Virus record (IMG/VR): IMGVR_UViG_2671180089_000001
Span: 1-64,000 of that record
DNA: 64,000 bases
Reading direction: 5' to 3' (one strand)
From: a virus
Taxonomy: Duplodnaviria; Caudoviricetes
The translations under genes were made by a program, and so were the position numbers. The notes under the pieces were generated by a model. It saw nothing but the letters and a program-made list of their open reading frames with translations, had not been told where the DNA came from and searched no databases. Positions within the stretch are counted from its first letter, which is position 1. Each line of letters begins with the position of its first letter. This document shows positions 1,496 to 17,383 of this stretch, in pieces.

Positions 1496-2515
1496 CTAGG
1501 TGGTGCTCTCCTCGGCCTGGTGCTGCGCGAGGAGAGTGCGGCGCATCGTTTCCCACCTGGTGGGGACCAGGTCGGTCTCCTCGACGCCCTGCTGGTCCTG
1601 CTCCTTTTGCACGGCGTCGGCGACCTTCTTGTACCACTTGCTGATGCCGCGCCGGAGGATCGGAATGCCGGCGTCGGGGTTCGGCGGGGCGGACAGCCAC
1701 AGTTGCCGCGGCACGCCGCCCTGTAGCCGACTGGTCAGCCTGGAGCGGCGGATGATCCAGTCATTCAACCGGGCGCGGGTGTCCTCGCTGAGCTCCCAGG
1801 TCTCCGGCTCGGGCATCTTCCCGCGGAGGCCTCCTTGGGGCTGGCGGATCAGGGTGAGGGTGCGCGGGGTATCGCTGATGAACGTGAGGTCTTCGAGGAG
1901 CATGGACTCCAGCTCGGCGAGGCGGGGCCAGACGTCGCGCATGACGCCCCACATGGCCAGGCCGCGGACGATGACGTCGGGCCGGTCGACGTCCGTCCAC
2001 TGGGCGGCTTCGGTCTCGAGGTGGCCGGTGATCAGGTTGGCCATGCGGGGGGAGACGGTCGGGCGCAGGCGCCACGGGGGGAGGTCGGGGGCCTCGAAGG
2101 GGAGCCGAGCCTGCTCGGCGATCCGCTCGAGGCAGAAGATCCGGATCCGCTCGGAGGTGTCGTAGCTGGTCGGGTCGGTGGCCACTATCGGCGCGCTGCG
2201 CAGGTGGCCGCCCCGCCCGTACAGCAGGTACGCGTGCACGGCCTCGGGGGCGAGGAGGTTGGCGAGGGAATCGCCGGCGCTCTCGGTCAGGCCGAGGGGG
2301 AGCGCCAGGGCGAGCTCGCCCGCGACCCACTCAAGCTGCTGCATGCGGGAGTCCGAGACGACGTCCTTGTTGCCGCGGTTGACGGTGCGGAACGTGTCGA
2401 GGATCCGTTCGAGCTGGCGGAGGGCCGGGGCGGGGCTGGGCACGGCTTGGAGGGCGACCGCGTGCGTCACGGGGTCGCCGCTGGCGCTGAGGGGGCGGGC
2501 GGTCGTCAAGGTCAT
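1496..2515 (-). CDS. Tyrosine-recombinase-fold protein, apparently lacking the C-terminal catalytic region
   Basis: WPRLAELESMLLEDL (RxxEL box I) and WETMRRT (HxxR-like); the protein ends ~12 aa later with no catalytic Tyr. Confidence 0.5.
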   Translation of the reverse strand: MTLTTARPLSASGDPVTHAVALQAVPSPAPALRQLERILDTFRTVNRGNKDVVSDSRMQQLEWVAGELALALPLGLTESAGDSLANLLAPEAVHAYLLYGRGGHLRSAPIVATDPTSYDTSERIRIFCLERIAEQARLPFEAPDLPPWRLRPTVSPRMANLITGHLETEAAQWTDVDRPDVIVRGLAMWGVMRDVWPRLAELESMLLEDLTFISDTPRTLTLIRQPQGGLRGKMPEPETWELSEDTRARLNDWIIRRSRLTSRLQGGVPRQLWLSAPPNPDAGIPILRRGISKWYKKVADAVQKEQDQQGVEETDLVPTRWETMRRTLLAQHQAEESTT

Positions 2516-2564
2516 GGCACAGAGTTTGCACGCTCCGGGCGCCCGTGGATGCACCTTCCTCGTA

Positions 2565-4358
2565 CTAATTGAGCAGGCCGCGGCGGCGCGGCGGGTTGAT
2601 CGGCTCCGGCTCGTACACGGTGAGCAGGGCCGCGTCGGCGCGGTCGGGGGACTTCATGCCGCGCTGCTTCATCGCCTTCTTCGACTCGACGACGCTGTAT
2701 CCGGCCGCGTTGGAGCCGAGGCGCGGGGTGGAGAGCTGGATGCCGGTCTGCCGGTCGACGCGGAGGCGGAGTCGGCCCAGGCCGGTCGAGGGGTCCGGCT
2801 GCAGCAGGCCACGGGTAGCGAGCCACATCTCGTCGCGTTTGCGGTACGGCCGCATCTGGGCGCCCGGGTCGTCCTGTTCGGGGGACTCGGACACCATGAC
2901 GCCGACGATCTGCGCCTGGTGGCGGCCGGTCTTCTCCCAGCGCTTGAGCATGCTGGTCACGCCGTGGCCGATGCCGTTCTGGTCGACCTTGACGCGAACG
3001 GCGTGCGGGGAGCCGATGGCGTTGGCGACGAGCTGCGCGGCCTTGATCTCCTCGAGGACCTTCTCGGCGAGGAGGACCTGGTCGTCGTTGATGGTGCCGG
3101 AGGAGCAGTAGCGGGTCTCGATGACGTCGCCGACGATGCGCGAAATGACGAACTCATCGCCACCGTCCGCGGCGACGTCGACGCCAAGGCGGACCCAGGC
3201 GCCGTCCTTCACCGTATGGGTGGCGGTCTCCGTCTCGATGCCGAGGTCGCACAGCCGGCGCCATCCGGGCCCGGTCGGGTCGTCGCTGGTCTGCGCGGCC
3301 TCGACCCAGGTCACGGGGATGGTGAGACCGCCTCCGCCCTTGGGGAACTTGGCGTGCACCTTCGCGATGACGTACGGGTGATCGGGCCCGTACTCGCGGA
3401 TCGTCCGGTCCACCCATTCCTGGTCGGGGAGGTGGATGGCCAGGGAGTGCGGCGGGACGCCGTCCGGGCAGTCGTTGCAGTAGGGGACGCGCTCCCCGGT
3501 GATCGCCGGGGACACGAACGTGGCGATCGGGATGGTGACGGTGCCGCGCTCCTCCGGATCCTCGCCCTCCTCGCACAAGCCCTCGAACCAGGACCTGGGG
3601 TCGTCCATCGCTGGGTTGCCGATGGCCAGCATCCGGGCGTCACCGGTGAGCAGGTTGTTCGTGCCGTTGCCGATGGTTCGGGCGATACCGCCGGCCTCGT
3701 CAACGATGATGAGCAGCTTGGGCGTGCCGTGGATGCCCTGCATGGCCGCTTCGTCGTTCTCGGGCGCGGTGAAGCCGTACGCCACAATGACGTCATTGCC
3801 CCACTGATCAGGCATTTTCCACTGGGTGGTGTCGCAGTAGCCGGGCAGGCCTGCCCGGGCGACGGTCTTCCGGATGTGCGGCCACAGCTGGTTCCGGACC
3901 TGCCGGAACCTGGTCGCCGTGGTGACGATGACCATGGTTCCGGGTGCGTTGACGGCCCCGGCCCAGGCAACGGCTCTACCCGCAATCCAAGTTTTACCGA
4001 CGCCAAATCCGGCGGGGACAGCGATGCGCTTGTTGAACGGGATGGCGTCGACGATCTCGCGCTGGCGGGACCAGATGCTTTCGCCGAGGACGTCCTCGAT
4101 GAAGCCGGAGGGCGTGTCGTGCCAGAGCCCGTACATGGAGCCGGTGGCCCGTTCGACTTCCCGCATGACGTACGGCCGCTCGCGGGCGCTGATGTCGTGC
4201 TTGAAGGCGTGCCGTCGTGCCGAGACGGGGGCGCGCAGCAGGATGTCGGCAACGTTGGAAGCGTCGCGGGAGATGACACCGGGCTTCCGTGCGCGCCGCA
4301 GCTCCTCGCGTTCGGGGGCGACGCGCAAGTTCGTGGGCGGGGGCTGCATGCGGGACAT
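2565..4358 (-). CDS. terL: Phage terminase large subunit
   Basis: Walker A AGFGVGKT, Walker B LIIVDEA, IGNP coupling motif; nuclease motifs LGVDVA, VDQNGIG, SPDRADA. Confidence 0.92.
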   Translation of the reverse strand: MSRMQPPPTNLRVAPEREELRRARKPGVISRDASNVADILLRAPVSARRHAFKHDISARERPYVMREVERATGSMYGLWHDTPSGFIEDVLGESIWSRQREIVDAIPFNKRIAVPAGFGVGKTWIAGRAVAWAGAVNAPGTMVIVTTATRFRQVRNQLWPHIRKTVARAGLPGYCDTTQWKMPDQWGNDVIVAYGFTAPENDEAAMQGIHGTPKLLIIVDEAGGIARTIGNGTNNLLTGDARMLAIGNPAMDDPRSWFEGLCEEGEDPEERGTVTIPIATFVSPAITGERVPYCNDCPDGVPPHSLAIHLPDQEWVDRTIREYGPDHPYVIAKVHAKFPKGGGGLTIPVTWVEAAQTSDDPTGPGWRRLCDLGIETETATHTVKDGAWVRLGVDVAADGGDEFVISRIVGDVIETRYCSSGTINDDQVLLAEKVLEEIKAAQLVANAIGSPHAVRVKVDQNGIGHGVTSMLKRWEKTGRHQAQIVGVMVSESPEQDDPGAQMRPYRKRDEMWLATRGLLQPDPSTGLGRLRLRVDRQTGIQLSTPRLGSNAAGYSVVESKKAMKQRGMKSPDRADAALLTVYEPEPINPPRRRGLLN

Positions 4359-4365
4359 GGGCGGG

Positions 4366-4395
4366 AAGGTGCCGCCCGGGGGGATCTAGTGTCGC
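4366..4395 (-). promoter_or_regulatory. Putative late promoter (leaderless terL)
   Basis: GCGACACTA-N15-CACCTT, 7 nt before ATG; the same geometry recurs before other virion/lysis genes. Confidence 0.65.
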
Positions 4396-4653: not shown

Positions 4654-5262
4654 TTACAGGTCGCCGATGAAGACCCGCGGGGCGGCCGCCTGCGTGCGCA
4701 TGACCCAGCGCTCCAGGTCGGACCAGGACAGGGTGAAGCTTTCCGCGGGCAAGGGCCGGATGCCGGTCAGCGGATTCTCGGCCGCCCACTGGGCGAGGTT
4801 CGCCGCGATGCGCTTCTGCAGGGCGGCACGCTCCTCGGCGGTGAGGGGGACGGGCTTGAAGGCGTACACGGTGGCGCCCTGGCCGCTGCTGTCGCCGTCC
4901 CAGCCGAGGGTGAGCTTCAGCCGCTTTACCTGCCGGGTGAGCTCGCTCAGGGCGCGGAGGGTGGAGCAGCCGGGGCAGTCGCAGGGCGCGGCCTCGTCGG
5001 CGGCCGTCGGCTGCTCGCCGGTCGGCTGCTCGGCGGCCGGGGCGTTGAAGCTCGCAACGAGGTCCTGCTCCTCCTCGGACCGGAGTATGGCCCGCCGGAA
5101 CCGTTCGACCTCGAGGTCTTCGGCCTTCTGCTGCTCGGCGGTGAGCTGGTACCAGTGCGGGAGCGCCCGGCCCTCCCCCTCGGCGATGAGGCGTTTCACC
5201 TCGTAGTGGTTGCGGGTGAGGTTCGGCGGGAGCAGGGTGCGCCGGGGCTTCACTGTCGTCAT
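4654..5262 (-). CDS. Hypothetical protein
   Basis: Clean ORF with Streptomyces codon bias; CDCPGC motif. Confidence 0.65.
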   Translation of the reverse strand: MTTVKPRRTLLPPNLTRNHYEVKRLIAEGEGRALPHWYQLTAEQQKAEDLEVERFRRAILRSEEEQDLVASFNAPAAEQPTGEQPTAADEAAPCDCPGCSTLRALSELTRQVKRLKLTLGWDGDSSGQGATVYAFKPVPLTAEERAALQKRIAANLAQWAAENPLTGIRPLPAESFTLSWSDLERWVMRTQAAAPRVFIGDL

Positions 5263-5598: not shown

Positions 5599-6219
5599 CT
5601 ACAGGCCTCGTCGACGGCGGGCCGCGGCGCGCTGCTTGTAGATCAGGTTCCGCTCGACGTCGGCGTGCTCGGCGATCTTCTCGGGCTTCCAGCCGTAGGG
5701 CTGCTCCGACAGGGCGAACACTGCCTCCTGCATGAAGCGCACCGCGAGGTCACGGCGGGCCCGTGCCGCGAAGACGATCGGGGCGGCCTCGAGGAGCTTC
5801 TCCTCGGCGCCCTCGACTCGCTCAATGCCTGCGGCCTCGGCGGCCTGGATGAGCTCCTCGCCGTTGCCGGTCGGCAGCTCGTGGACGTGCTTCTTGTTGC
5901 CGAACATCACCGTGGCGAGCGCCTGCCGGTAGCCCATGTTCCCCAGGCCGACGGTCGCGGCCAGGCCGAGACGCTGCTCGTAGAACCACAGGTGGGCGAG
6001 CGCCTGGTCCCGCTCGTCGAGGTGCAGTGCGATCTCGGCGTCGGCCTGGGCGACGATGCCGGCGGCCTTCACGATCAGGTCCTCGGGGCGAACGTGGACT
6101 GCGTCCTCTGGACGCTCAAGGCCCAGCTTCTTGAGGACCTCGTCCTTGGAGTCCTTTTTGATCTGGGCGTAGTTCGGGGCCGGGATGCGCGGGCCGTACG
6201 TCTTACCAGCCTTGGGCAT
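5599..6219 (-). CDS. Putative HTH DNA-binding regulator
   Basis: C-terminal GWKPEKIAEHADVERNLIYKQR HTH; RBS GGAGAA; preceded by the early promoter box. Confidence 0.65.
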   Translation of the reverse strand: MPKAGKTYGPRIPAPNYAQIKKDSKDEVLKKLGLERPEDAVHVRPEDLIVKAAGIVAQADAEIALHLDERDQALAHLWFYEQRLGLAATVGLGNMGYRQALATVMFGNKKHVHELPTGNGEELIQAAEAAGIERVEGAEEKLLEAAPIVFAARARRDLAVRFMQEAVFALSEQPYGWKPEKIAEHADVERNLIYKQRAAARRRRGL

Positions 6220-6302
6220 GGTGGCTGTTCTCCGTCCAACTGTGGCGCGAGTTGTGCGCCGGCGCGGCGACTGGGGCAACCCCATGCCGCCGCAACGACG
6301 GG

Positions 6303-9275: not shown

Positions 9276-9296
9276 GGTTGACACCGTAGCGGCGGT

Positions 9297-9344
9297 GAGG
9301 TGACGTGACGCGGAACGGGCCCGGAAGCCGCGTCACGTCACCTC
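9297..9344. repeat. 17-bp perfect inverted repeat built from GTGA(C/G) units
   Basis: GAGGTGACGTGACGCGG / CCGCGTCACGTCACCTC. Confidence 0.7.
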
Positions 9345-9360
9345 TCTTCCTGCCCGGGGG

Positions 9361-9834
9361 TCAGGCCGCGCGGTGCTCGGCGAGCGCCTGCTCGAGCTCG
9401 TTGAGGATCGTCACGATGTCGTCGATCTTCACGTAGGAGATCCCGAAGGTGACGGTCCCATCCGCGTGGACGTCGAACTCGTACTCCGCGTACGACTGCT
9501 CGTCCTCGTAGTGGTAGCTGCCTGGCTCAGCCTCGGTGAACCCGCCGGGGCCCTCGTCGAACCAGTTCGCGCCCCACGTCTCCTTCATGGCGTGGCCGAC
9601 GGCGGCCTTGGGGACGCGCTCGAACTCGACTGTGGCGCGCCCGTGGTCATCGAGGCACACCTTGCCCTCGCCCTCCCCGGGCTGCTTCCAGCGCAGGGTG
9701 GGGCCGAAGCAATGGCACTTTTCTGCGGGGGTCAGGGCGGGGAACGCCGCGGTGAACGCCTCTTGCGCGGCGAACTGCTGGTTGTCCCAGGACATCCTCC
9801 AATCGTGCATGGCCTTCATGACGTGCGGCTGCAC
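9361..9834 (-). CDS. Hypothetical protein
   Basis: RBS GGGAG; codon bias. Confidence 0.7.
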   Translation of the reverse strand: MQPHVMKAMHDWRMSWDNQQFAAQEAFTAAFPALTPAEKCHCFGPTLRWKQPGEGEGKVCLDDHGRATVEFERVPKAAVGHAMKETWGANWFDEGPGGFTEAEPGSYHYEDEQSYAEYEFDVHADGTVTFGISYVKIDDIVTILNELEQALAEHRAA

Positions 9835-9954: not shown

Positions 9955-10788
9955 TCACTGCGCGGCGGCGGGGGCCGTGACCTGGTCACACGACGCGTAC
10001 AGCGAGAACCACTCCTCCGGCTCGTCGGCCGTGCCGCCCAGGGCGACCAGGCGGCTCGGGCCGTACGCGTTATCGGCCAGGAACGTCATGGTGGCGCGCA
10101 TGTCCGGATCGGCGATCCGGTCCGCGTCGGCGACGACAGCGACGTACTGGTGGAGTCCGCCCACGCTGTGCGGGGTGGTGTTCCACGCGGCGAACGCCAT
10201 GATGCGCTGCGGGCCCTCGAGGTCGTCGGCCCACCAGCCGCCCCGCCGGAGGTCCAGGCGGCCAGGCAGGCACGCGTTGTCGATGAACCGGGCAAGGATG
10301 CGCCACACGCTCGCCGACGTCGATCGGTACGGGGCGATGGAGACGGCGACGCGGGGGCCCTCGCCGAACGGGCGGGGGCACGACACCAGGGCCGTCCACG
10401 CGACAAGCACGGCGGCCGCAGTGTGATTGTCGATGCCCGGGAGGCGGGCGGCGATCCGGCGGGCGTCCGGGTCGGCGACGGCGTCCAGGGCGGCGCGCAG
10501 CTCCTCGTCGAGCGCCAGGCCGAGGACGTCGACGGCGAACCCGCTCGGGGTATCCCGCCACAGCTCGTACGCGCTGCCGGTGTGCTGATCGAGGGCGACC
10601 AGCACGTCCAGGAGGACGGCGTCGTCCAGGGCGGCGACGTGGGTGGCCCGCTGGTCAACCGGAAGGTTGAGCAGCCGGTGGGCGAGCTCCGCCGACTCCG
10701 CGGCCGGCTGCACGATGCGGTGCGGGCGGTTGGCGGTCCGGGCCTGGGAGGCGAGCGCGGCGCAGCGGGTGAGCGGGATGTACGTCAT
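9955..10788 (-). CDS. Degenerate terminase ATPase-domain paralogue (pseudo-TerL)
   Basis: TGSAYELWRDTPSGFAVDVLG versus TerL TGSMYGLWHDTPSGFIEDVLG; Walker A and B degenerate; no nuclease domain. Confidence 0.8.
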   Translation of the reverse strand: MTYIPLTRCAALASQARTANRPHRIVQPAAESAELAHRLLNLPVDQRATHVAALDDAVLLDVLVALDQHTGSAYELWRDTPSGFAVDVLGLALDEELRAALDAVADPDARRIAARLPGIDNHTAAAVLVAWTALVSCPRPFGEGPRVAVSIAPYRSTSASVWRILARFIDNACLPGRLDLRRGGWWADDLEGPQRIMAFAAWNTTPHSVGGLHQYVAVVADADRIADPDMRATMTFLADNAYGPSRLVALGGTADEPEEWFSLYASCDQVTAPAAAQ

Positions 10789-10948
10789 GGGCGTGGACCG
10801 TAGGGGCCGCAGAGGGTTGCGTCGCCCGCTGGGCTGGCCGGTGGCAGAGCCGCTCCTGACGTGGGGCGATGCGATGCAGAGGTGACCTCCAGGACGCGCT
10901 GCGCCCCGGCCGGGGAGTCGTCCGGCCGGGGCGCAGCGTCGTACGGGG

Positions 10949-11290
10949 TCAGGCGTCGGCGCCACCGATGCCGCTCGAGCACTCGGGGTCGAAGATGTTG
11001 CAGCCGTCCGGGTCCGGCGTCATCGGCGCGGTCGGCGTCGGCTGCGGCGGTTCGCTGGGTGCCGGGGTGGTGCTCGGCGTGGGGTCCTCGGGCGCCTGGG
11101 TCGACGGGGCGGGCTTCGGCTCGCTTGAGGAGTCGGGGCCCTGCACGATGACGACGGCGAGCGCGGCGACGCCCAGGGCCAGGGCGAAACCCCAGCAGAC
11201 GATCATCACGCGCAGCAGACGCGAGCAGCGCAGGCAGCGCGTCGCACGGGGGCAGGGGGCGGGCTTCGGGCAGGGGACAAGGTCGGACAC
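10949..11290 (-). CDS. Small membrane-anchored Pro-rich protein
   Basis: Cys-rich N-terminus, one TM helix, Pro/Thr tail; RBS GAAGGA. Confidence 0.55.
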   Translation of the reverse strand: MSDLVPCPKPAPCPRATRCLRCSRLLRVMIVCWGFALALGVAALAVVIVQGPDSSSEPKPAPSTQAPEDPTPSTTPAPSEPPQPTPTAPMTPDPDGCNIFDPECSSGIGGADA

Positions 11291-15632: not shown

Positions 15633-16484
15633 TCAGCGGGCGAGGTACGGGGCGAGAGAGACGAGGAAGTCAACGCCGACGGCGTGAAGGTCGACGGAGG
15701 CCGGGGTGGTGTCGCGCACCCGGGCGGCCGGGTCGGCGGCGGGCGCGGCGTACCCGTACACCCCGGGCCGCGTCCCGAACGCGATGCCGCCCGCGTCGGT
15801 CTGCTCCACGTCCACGCGCTGCGCGAGGAACGCGGCCATGCGGCGGGCGAGACGCCCCCGCACGTTGCGCATCGGCCACGTCTTCGGGTCGAGCGGCTTG
15901 CCAGGCAGGAACTGGGCCACGGCCCGCTCGACGGCGCGCACCGGACCCTCTATCTGGACGTCACACGCGGGGTTGGAGCCGTGCAGGGTGGCCGAGTAGC
16001 GCAGGCCGGCCGAGGACCAGGTGACGGTAGACGTGTTCACCAGGAGCCCGCCCCGCTCGTACGTCGCTGCGCCCTGGGCGCGCATCGCGGCGCCGATCTC
16101 GTAGAGCAGCTCCAGCCGGACGCGGGAGACGTCCTCGCGGGCGCGGGCCGCATCGTCGTCGAGGACGGGCAGGACCAGGCGCAGGATCTCGCGGGCGACG
16201 ACGTCCGGGCGGGAGGAGCAGAACGTGAAGTCCGGCCGGTACGGCTCACGGCCGGGGAGCTGCCACCCGACCTCGGTGTTCCAGGTGTGCCCGTTGGCGA
16301 CCAGGACCAGGGCGCGGGCGCCTTGGACCAGGCGGACGCCGGGGTGCCGGGCGGTCCACCACGGGGCGTAGGGCTCCACGGTCCAGGGGACGCCGGTTCG
16401 CGCGGGGAGCAGTGCGGCGACGTGCTCGGCGAGGGTGCGGGCGGGGCAGGCGACGGGGGCCGGGGCGGCCACGGGCGCGGTCAT
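15633..16484 (-). CDS. Hypothetical protein (paralogue of 16553-17383)
   Basis: Shares AALLPAR.G..W.V and GVDFL...A..L with its neighbour. Confidence 0.75.
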   Translation of the reverse strand: MTAPVAAPAPVACPARTLAEHVAALLPARTGVPWTVEPYAPWWTARHPGVRLVQGARALVLVANGHTWNTEVGWQLPGREPYRPDFTFCSSRPDVVAREILRLVLPVLDDDAARAREDVSRVRLELLYEIGAAMRAQGAATYERGGLLVNTSTVTWSSAGLRYSATLHGSNPACDVQIEGPVRAVERAVAQFLPGKPLDPKTWPMRNVRGRLARRMAAFLAQRVDVEQTDAGGIAFGTRPGVYGYAAPAADPAARVRDTTPASVDLHAVGVDFLVSLAPYLAR

Positions 16485-16552: not shown

Positions 16553-17383
16553 TCAGACCAGGTGCGCGGCGGCGGCGAGCAGGAAGTCGACGCCGGCCGG
16601 GGCGACCTGGGCGCAGACCCGGGTGCTGTCGGTCACGGGGTCGCTGAGCTCGGCGCGGGAGGGAAGCGCGATCCAGCCGTGCAGGTCCTGGTAGCCGCCG
16701 AACTCGACCTCGTCGGCGTCGACTGGGCGGAGCTGCGGGAAGCGGTCCGTCAGGTGGCGCGTGAACGGGCTACCGGCGTCCGTGGGGACGTGACCGTGCA
16801 GCGCGGGCAGCAGGACCGGCAGCGCCCCATACAGGCCACTCATGGGCCCCTCGTAGGTCAGCGAGTAGTTCGAGCCCGCACCGTTCGCCCATACGCCCCA
16901 CTCGGCGCCGGACGCGCTCGCCCACTTGATGCCGGGGCCGTCGGGGCGCTCCGTGCTCGCGGGGGACACGCCCTGGTCGATCAGGTGGAACCCGAACTCC
17001 GTAAGCGCGGTGCCCTTGGCGTGCAGAACGTGGTGCCACCCCTTCTCGGCGGCGGCCTCCCGGATCGTCGCGGCGTCCAGGTCGGCGAGGAGCCAGCGCA
17101 GCGCACGTGTGGCGAGCGTGGCGACGGAGGCCGGGTCGGTGGAGTCGACGACGACGTCCGGCGTGTACGGGAACAGGTCGGGACGCTCGCCGTACAGCTC
17201 GACGCGGTTGCCCTCCTCGACGACGAGCAGGGAGCGGCGGCCGTCGGTGATCCGGGACGTAGCGGCGTGGTTGCGCGGGCCGTAGAGCGGGGCGGTGCCG
17301 ACCTTCCACGCCTTGCCCTGGCGGGCGGGCAGGAGGGCGGCGAGCGGCGCGGCGGTGGCCGCCTCGGTGACGGCAGAGATCAC
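16553..17383 (-). CDS. Hypothetical protein (paralogue of 15633-16484)
   Basis: Same shared motifs; AGAGCA leader and RBS upstream. Confidence 0.75.
   Translation of the reverse strand: MISAVTEAATAAPLAALLPARQGKAWKVGTAPLYGPRNHAATSRITDGRRSLLVVEEGNRVELYGERPDLFPYTPDVVVDSTDPASVATLATRALRWLLADLDAATIREAAAEKGWHHVLHAKGTALTEFGFHLIDQGVSPASTERPDGPGIKWASASGAEWGVWANGAGSNYSLTYEGPMSGLYGALPVLLPALHGHVPTDAGSPFTRHLTDRFPQLRPVDADEVEFGGYQDLHGWIALPSRAELSDPVTDSTRVCAQVAPAGVDFLLAAAAHLV

Follow-up and report, generated by a model that had tools for sequence, protein, structure and literature searches.

The window analysed here comprises the first 64 kb of the 126,324-bp virus record IMGVR_UViG_2671180089_000001 (Duplodnaviria; Caudoviricetes; G+C content about 70%, estimated completeness 97%). 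In addition to a catalytically intact terminase large subunit (TerL), it encodes a 277-residue protein for which sequence comparison supports identification as an intact copy of the TerL ATPase domain that lacks the nuclease and is catalytically dead. Terminase is the core of the packaging motor and, among protein triggers of bacterial STAND immunity, the best documented. It is very probable that the gene for this paralogue is a real late accessory gene for a binding-only pseudo-ATPase, that is, a paralogue of the N-terminal helical region and ATPase domain of TerL that has neither nuclease nor canonical ATP binding or hydrolysis, and that it stands first in a leaderless two-gene operon with a 157-residue protein. 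With neither a P-loop nor a catalytic glutamate, canonically bound ATP is not expected, and the protein, to judge from its sequence, can only act by binding. Among named phages the record is closest to Gilgamesh (129 kb), a temperate Streptomyces phage in which the DNA around the paralogue is 83% identical.

An earlier note on this DNA had likened the open reading frame (ORF) to the N-terminal half of TerL, and similarity searches bear this out. BLASTP against the 597-residue TerL aligns the paralogue with TerL residues 12–268 (84 of 278 positions identical, 30%; E 1e-18), and all shared motifs quoted in the note occur in that alignment in the order quoted. A search of the whole record with the paralogue matched exactly two places, its own ORF and TerL (E 2e-17), and an all-against-all BLAST of 216 candidate ORFs (E ≤ 1e-3) recovered the two proteins as one of six paralogous pairs (E 2.5e-16). 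The last residue of the paralogue (277) aligns with TerL residue 268 of 597, where the ATPase domain stops, and the RNase H-like nuclease domain is absent, as the note had stated. The predicted structure, a confident model, is closest to TerL ATPase domains (TerL-type ASCE ATPase fold), in keeping with the structural likeness that had been expected, and a profile of the paralogue family also picks up TerLs of 545–600 residues. The fold is TerL-like and not like that of the small terminase subunit (TerS), and no TerS family match was found in Pfam, PHROG or NCBIfam, results that still leave room for a TerS-like role. In Pfam the best match of any kind is MgtE_N (E 0.12, below the cut-off); PHROGs, NCBIfam and PADLOC gave no family match, the family profile gave no match to PDB sequences at E ≤ 10, and none of the 31 patterns matched in a viral_contigs scan was confirmed. 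A longer frame of 336 residues from GTG 10965 was rejected because the stretch above ATG 10788 is unconserved and carries a hairpin and the promoter.

The paralogue has lost catalytic residues of TerL. The Q/adenine motif of TerL (WSRQRE) is gone, with LDEELRA in its place, and the Walker A P-loop GFGVGKT reads (L)PGIDNHT, without the P-loop lysine and threonine. In Walker B (TerL IIVDEAG, paralogue VVADADR) the aspartate is kept and nearly invariant in the family, and the catalytic glutamate is an invariant alanine; the changes that had been described for both Walker motifs are therefore real. A word-index search returned 28 relatives, 23 of which are full-length (272–295 residues, at least 98% of the query covered, 50–87% identical) and have no frame breaks, which agrees with the intact frame described earlier. 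Neither a P-loop lysine (GK[ST]) nor a catalytic glutamate occurs in any row (0/24) of a 24-row family alignment, which has 49 invariant columns, including W77, W131, W162, W185 and EEWF. The former Walker B strand (VAVVADADRIADPxMRA) ranks with the most highly conserved parts of this alignment, and the motifs best shared with TerL (GSxYxLWxDTPSGFxxDVLG, LPG and EEWF) are invariant in the paralogue family.

Codon comparisons among seven DNA sequences indicate purifying selection on the paralogue. The ratio of nonsynonymous to synonymous substitution rates (dN/dS, omega; Nei–Gojobori with bootstrap limits) is 0.29 (0.17–0.47), 0.15 (0.08–0.25) and 0.53 (0.38–0.73) for three independent pairs and 0.42 (0.30–0.58) against Gilgamesh, so that the upper limits are all <0.75; the earlier note had taken ratios near 1 as the mark of neutral decay. 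TerL in the same genomes has ratios of 0.13–0.19, a comparison that is the safer statement because G+C at third codon positions near 0.9 probably inflates Nei–Gojobori omega for all genes, and dN of the paralogue is 2–4 times that of TerL for the same genome pairs. The family was found in four (about 1%) of the 401 Streptomyces species genomes sampled, and tblastn against a phage collection found it in Gilgamesh only (two records). Among sequencing runs listed as containing the sequence there is none of RNA, and the DNA runs have small shares of 0.11 or less.

The promoter also links the paralogue with TerL. The gene had been credited with its own leaderless late-type promoter carrying TACGGT, of the type that precedes TerL, and both statements find support. 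The block GCGACGCAA-N14-TACGGT is unique within the window, with 0 expected by chance, and it is the sole conserved upstream block in all seven relatives (G[CA]GACGCAA-N14-CTA[CT][GC]GT-N8-ATG), where the surrounding sequence is unalignable. Upstream of TerL, GCGAC[AG][CT][TA]AG-N13-GCACC[TC]T is conserved in 5/5 relatives. GCGAC stands 37 nt before the leaderless ATG in both the paralogue and TerL, and only the -10-like hexamers differ (TACGGT versus CACCTT). The general form, GCGAC-R-Y-W-A-N, occurs 27 times genome-wide (24 on the minus strand), usually with a CAYGGT-like hexamer 24 nt later, and a stricter form has 7 matches in the window versus 0.03 expected. Window sites of this class, for which GCGAC-R-Y-W-A-R and CAYGGT describe the two elements, lie on the minus strand at 4395, 8150, 10825, 11354, 11770, 17465, 18296, 48853, 50416, 59495 and 63662. 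Several copies are exactly 37 nt ahead of a start codon, in the leaderless arrangement, and sites of the class precede the portal operon, a 3908-residue ORF, the protease operon, a 433-residue ORF, and genes for the major tail protein, two minor tail proteins and the tail fibre. The class appears to be phage-specific and is common to the paralogue, TerL and virion genes; the label "late-type" is reasonable, and both it and "same promoter type as TerL" are supported by association. Scans for sigma-70 consensus promoters and T-tail terminators were uninformative at 70% G+C. A helix-turn-helix (HTH)/Sigma70_r4-like protein encoded at 5602–6222 is a candidate reader of the promoter class.

The transcription unit is apparently isolated from the upstream gene by a terminator-like hairpin, and a second such hairpin follows the 157-residue gene (Table 1). 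No strong hairpin lies between the paralogue and the 157-residue gene (z −2.2), and we infer that the two genes form a leaderless bicistronic operon. The 157-residue protein is itself conserved (mean column identity 85%, omega 0.33–0.50); it has no family match and no convincing fold match.

Table 1. Coordinates of the dead TerL paralogue, its operon partner, TerL and associated signals in the window
Feature	Position	Strand	Details
Coding sequence of dead TerL-ATPase paralogue ("decoy-A")	9955..10788	minus	277 residues plus stop; ATG at 10788, stop at 9955–9957
Promoter-like block of paralogue, GCGACGCAA-N14-TACGGT	10797..10825	minus	8 nt before ATG, without Shine-Dalgarno; transcript probably leaderless
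Terminator-like 17-bp perfect hairpin after upstream gene	10880..10950	minus	−57.5 kcal/mol, z −8.5; 0/200 shuffles as stable
Second gene of operon, conserved 157-residue protein	9361..9834	minus	GGAAGGGAG ahead of start; directly follows paralogue in 7/7 relatives
Terminator-like 17-bp hairpin after 157-residue gene	9285..9363	minus	−41.1 kcal/mol, z −3.5; 0/200 shuffles as stable
TerL, catalytically intact	2565..4358	minus	597 residues; phrog_2 match, E 4e-18
Promoter-like block of TerL, GCGACACTAG-N14-CACCTT	4366..4395	minus	ATG 37 nt from G of GCGAC; kept in 5/5 relatives

Dead TerL paralogues of two lineages, decayed to different degrees, occur in Gilgamesh-like Streptomyces elements of about 125 kb. 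The lineage of the paralogue is labelled decoy-A and the second decoy-B, which are names only and imply no decoy activity (below, L numbers are loci in the genomes compared, with L001 for Gilgamesh, P numbers are database proteins and G000 marks whole-record coordinates). An exhaustive profile search with the paralogue family gave 70 matches at E ≤ 1e-3. Decoy-B proteins (P0033, P0035, P0038, P0039, P0044 and P0046; 314–346 residues, on 124–135-kb Streptomyces contigs) have the N-terminal region, the ATPase domain and a Cys/His linker, and no nuclease; their Walker A motif is half-decayed (CFGGAKT, CFGSGKS, CFGSGAR) and the catalytic glutamate is lost. P0021 (decoy-A) and P0046 (decoy-B) each lie on a contig of 21,940 bp, an equal length which suggests that the two are on one element. 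Five further proteins (P0056, P0075, P0081, P0087 and P0096) were set aside as apparent composition matches, with many short stretches in long proteins.

In six of eight related genomes, a third TerL-like gene lies 1–2 kb downstream of the paralogue (L004:12117-12488, L006, L007, L008, L009 and Gilgamesh gp149, L001:3871-4209); it is absent from the genome of the window and from L005. Its product is a stub of 112–124 residues that consists of the N-terminal ~100 residues only, without the ATPase core. The stub matches P0044 from residue 1 to about 101–131 at 58–74% identity in 5/5 genomes and is, by this likeness, an N-terminal remnant of the decoy-B lineage, which survives in this form in most relatives. 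A leaderless promoter, GCGACGCTAAG-N13-TACGGT-N8-ATG, precedes the stub in four of five scanned loci (not in L008), and this shared layout fits a duplication that took in both the promoter and the 5' part of the gene. In a tree of 33 chosen rows (16 TerL, 10 of 24 decoy-A and 7 decoy-B), decoy-A forms one clade (100/100) on a long stem (1.26) and joins six of the seven decoy-B rows in a single clade (98/95), with all 16 TerLs opposite (96/95); P0055 is a long-branch outlier outside the dead-paralogue clade, and its placement is unsure. Because the tree is rooted only at its midpoint, it does not distinguish an old duplication from a recent one that evolves fast.

A mechanism can be sketched for a protein that binds and does not catalyse. 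Its promoter class suggests that the paralogue would be made at the same time as TerL; it may mimic the N-terminal/ATPase half of TerL and thereby compete for a factor whose usual docking site is that half. This factor would most likely be a packaging partner (a small terminase or specificity subunit) and less likely TerL itself, and the outcome would be that packaging initiation, and not DNA translocation, is tuned or diverted. That the paralogue is a TerL look-alike competing for a packaging partner that binds the TerL N-terminus, such as TerS, is a tentative preference that we hold at clearly less than even confidence. We lean towards such a partner because the promoter class drives TerL and virion genes, the gene behaves as an accessory gene, the common piece of all TerL-derived copies is the N-terminal ~100 residues, and the N-terminus of P22 TerL binds TerS. 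The available portion of PMC9611059 gives P22 TerL residues 1–58 as the TerS-binding domain and has the C-terminus of lambda TerS binding TerL; the corresponding N-terminal ~100 residues are common to TerL and all dead paralogues here. That TerL of the present clade binds TerS through its N-terminal region would follow by analogy with P22 and lambda only.

Several observations weigh against this preference. Amino-acid identities between genomes are lower for the paralogue than for TerL (89% versus 95%, 69% versus 94% and 67% versus 89%), as are those to Gilgamesh (75.5% versus 94.7%), and such faster evolution is hard to square with TerL itself as the partner. L009 has an intact TerL but lacks the promoter of the paralogue and its first 146 codons, and what is left is frameshifted; six shorter or disrupted database forms (P0027–P0032) are truncated or frameshifted, some of them perhaps through assembly errors; the paralogue is thus dispensable in some copies. 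Faster evolution than that of TerL, together with the broken copies, leads us to class it as an accessory gene. Constraint on the stub is weak (omega 0.41–0.75, with the upper bootstrap limit reaching 1 in 9 of 15 pairs). The candidate TerS, an HTH-like 207-residue product of 5602–6222, is only an Atlas lead, to HTH/Sigma70_r4-like proteins (score 0.83), and BLASTP found no similarity between it and the annotated TerS of Wheelbite, a phage with a related TerL; the 202-residue product of 4657–5262 also showed no BLASTP similarity to that TerS, and the Gilgamesh annotation contains no TerS. Finally, a protein that competes with the terminase of its own phage is not obviously useful.

The likeness to TerL might instead be directed at the host. 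The paralogue would then imitate monomeric TerL towards a terminase sensor (Avs1-3- or Upx-like), either as a sponge that does not activate the sensor or by shielding free TerL, and protect the phage while TerL accumulates late. Predicted co-expression through the promoter class of TerL, fast evolution and variable presence like those of conflict genes, and a location among small orphan genes are all consistent with such a role. According to the accessible parts of PMC13601566 and PMC11564622, the ATPase domain of TerL suffices to trigger EcAvs2, and accessory proteins that resemble this domain make physical contact with Avs2; the authors of the look-alike work suggest a possible anti-defence role (PMC13601566). 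However, the same part of PMC13601566 reports that SeAvs3 reads active-site residues and bound ATP and that the bridging ATP of EcAvs2 contacts the terminase's own ATP. The paralogue, without a P-loop, does not present such an ATP-bound active site, which makes a decoy role less likely, although other modes of binding may apply. Moreover, the three look-alikes in the published material at hand (T4 vs.8, Ksap1 and Ksap2; PMC13601566; PMC11564622) all activate Avs2 and none inhibits it, the N-terminal stub is entirely without the ATPase core, and PADLOC gave no defence-related family match for the paralogue. Published data weigh against a simple Avs decoy, and we consider mimicry towards an immune sensor unlikely, if still worth serious attention. 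The broader proposal, that a TerL-derived pseudo-ATPase family of Gilgamesh-like phages, with a leaderless late layout as if copied with the 5' part of TerL, mimics monomeric TerL to blunt terminase-sensing immunity, is doubtful to a somewhat greater degree. Similarly doubtful is the proposal that the paralogue and its 157-residue partner do something unrelated to TerL partners or sensors, with the TerL fold as a reused frame. Retention of the bicistronic unit in 7/7 relatives, the long stem branch of the family and the strong conservation of the former active-site strand, which hints at a new site, would suit such a neofunctionalised scaffold, whereas the motifs best shared with TerL have stayed invariant and the promoter class links the gene to packaging and virion genes.

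A dead subunit could also be built into the terminase of a related superinfecting phage or satellite and stall it. The dead-ATPase architecture suits a dominant-negative poison or exclusion factor of this kind; the elements, which are temperate, were present in about 1% of the Streptomyces species genomes sampled; and Gpi, a TerL inhibitor encoded by the satellite PLE, shows, in the available part of its description (10.1101/2024.04.22.590561), that the packaging motor is a target in mobile-element conflicts. However, the late-class promoter argues against expression in the prophage state, and TerL is 89–95% identical among relatives, so a dead subunit would poison the phage's own motor too; we regard this explanation as improbable. 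Even less credit, in our judgement, is due to a functionless, decaying duplicate. Disrupted copies, an omega above that of TerL and a sister lineage clearly reduced to a stub or lost altogether point in that direction, but 23 full-length homologues down to 50% identity have no frame breaks, the upper bootstrap limits of omega are all below 0.75, the promoter is invariant in 7/7 relatives and the structure model is confident.

The genomic setting is that of a temperate Streptomyces phage. On the minus strand the paralogue (10788 to 9955) is separated from TerL (4358 to 2565) by some 5.6 kb of small genes, one of them for an HNH endonuclease, and a tyrosine integrase homologue comes after TerL; small orphan genes surround the paralogue. 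TerL of the window is 39% identical to annotated TerLs of Arthrobacter phages. In Gilgamesh, which is recorded with S. lividans JI 1326 as host, TerL is gene 1 (gp1), the paralogue is gp146, labelled "hypothetical protein", and the 157-residue partner is gp147; the record ends of Gilgamesh fall inside the window. TerL adjoins the integrase homologue (1496–4358, minus strand) and lies tens of kilobases from the portal gene, so the usual terminase–portal–capsid order is not kept. Homologues of the paralogue are mostly on 113–156 kb contigs of Streptomyces assemblies, with two on chromosome-sized contigs, and Gilgamesh genes 2, 10 and 32 encode two tyrosine integrases and an FtsK-like translocase. 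Gilgamesh-like relatives may include extrachromosomal prophages (phage-plasmids) as well as integrated ones.

Other duplicated or unusual genes were also seen in the record. Two adjacent orphan genes in the window (15633–16484 and 16553–17383, minus strand; 283 and 276 residues) are mutual paralogues (26% over 269 residues, E 3e-8) and are unrelated to TerL. Outside the window, a 179-residue ORF (G000 73546-74085; L016:13546-14085, minus strand) is similar to the MuF/head-morphogenesis region at the C-terminus of the portal-MuF fusion (30% over 73 residues, E 3e-5; phrog_859, E 7e-8), which makes it a second, incomplete copy of a core virion gene. The major tail protein (G000 71891-72724) and a 210-residue ORF (G000 75987-76619), both on the minus strand, have a common C-terminal segment of 84 residues (58% identity, E 1e-17). 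The single ORF of about 3,910 residues (G000 84521-96265, minus strand) lies between the portal and protease genes, has its own leaderless promoter copy and corresponds to Gilgamesh gp48.

Comparison with known systems places the paralogue beside TerL and apart from other accessory look-alikes. It has the homologous N-terminal helical region, ATPase domain and fold of TerLs generally (that of its own phage, Gilgamesh gp1, T4 gp17, P74-26 and Sf6 gp2), and it has the promoter class and leaderless layout of its own TerL. Unlike TerL, it lacks the Q motif, the P-loop lysine and threonine, the linker and the nuclease domain, has alanine for the catalytic glutamate and can be lost. T4 vs.8 is likewise a stand-alone accessory homologue of the phage's own terminase ATPase domain, as described in the available text of Evans et al. 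2026 (PMC13601566). It keeps Walker A and Walker B and is toxic with EcAvs2, whereas the paralogue has lost both motifs, and the TerL clades of the two proteins are apparently unrelated. KpAvs2 is triggered by the small phage proteins Ksap1 and Ksap2, which, according to the accessible text of PMC11564622, have no sequence homology to TerL, whereas the homology of the paralogue to TerL is plain. Stand-alone TerL-ATPase look-alikes (T4 vs.8, Ksap2) are very recent arrivals in the literature, and their role is called an open question in the part of PMC13601566 at hand. In searches of open-access papers and bioRxiv, neither catalytically dead TerL paralogues nor TerL decoys turned up; T4 vs.8 was the only stand-alone TerL-ATPase homologue found there, along with the weaker look-alikes Ksap1/2. 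No mention of phage Gilgamesh was found in papers, and the available sections of a jumbo-phage review (PMC7824862) and of a STAND paper (PMC13581612, Nature 2026) contain nothing on terminase paralogues.

New here are the operon with the 157-residue protein and the two dead TerL lineages in Gilgamesh-like elements. The locus is a tractable case: its parent gene is clear, its operon partner and promoter are defined, the two dead lineages have decayed to different extents, and Gilgamesh provides a cultured relative. Whatever target it binds, the paralogue would show how phages put their most conserved enzyme to a second use as a module for binding.
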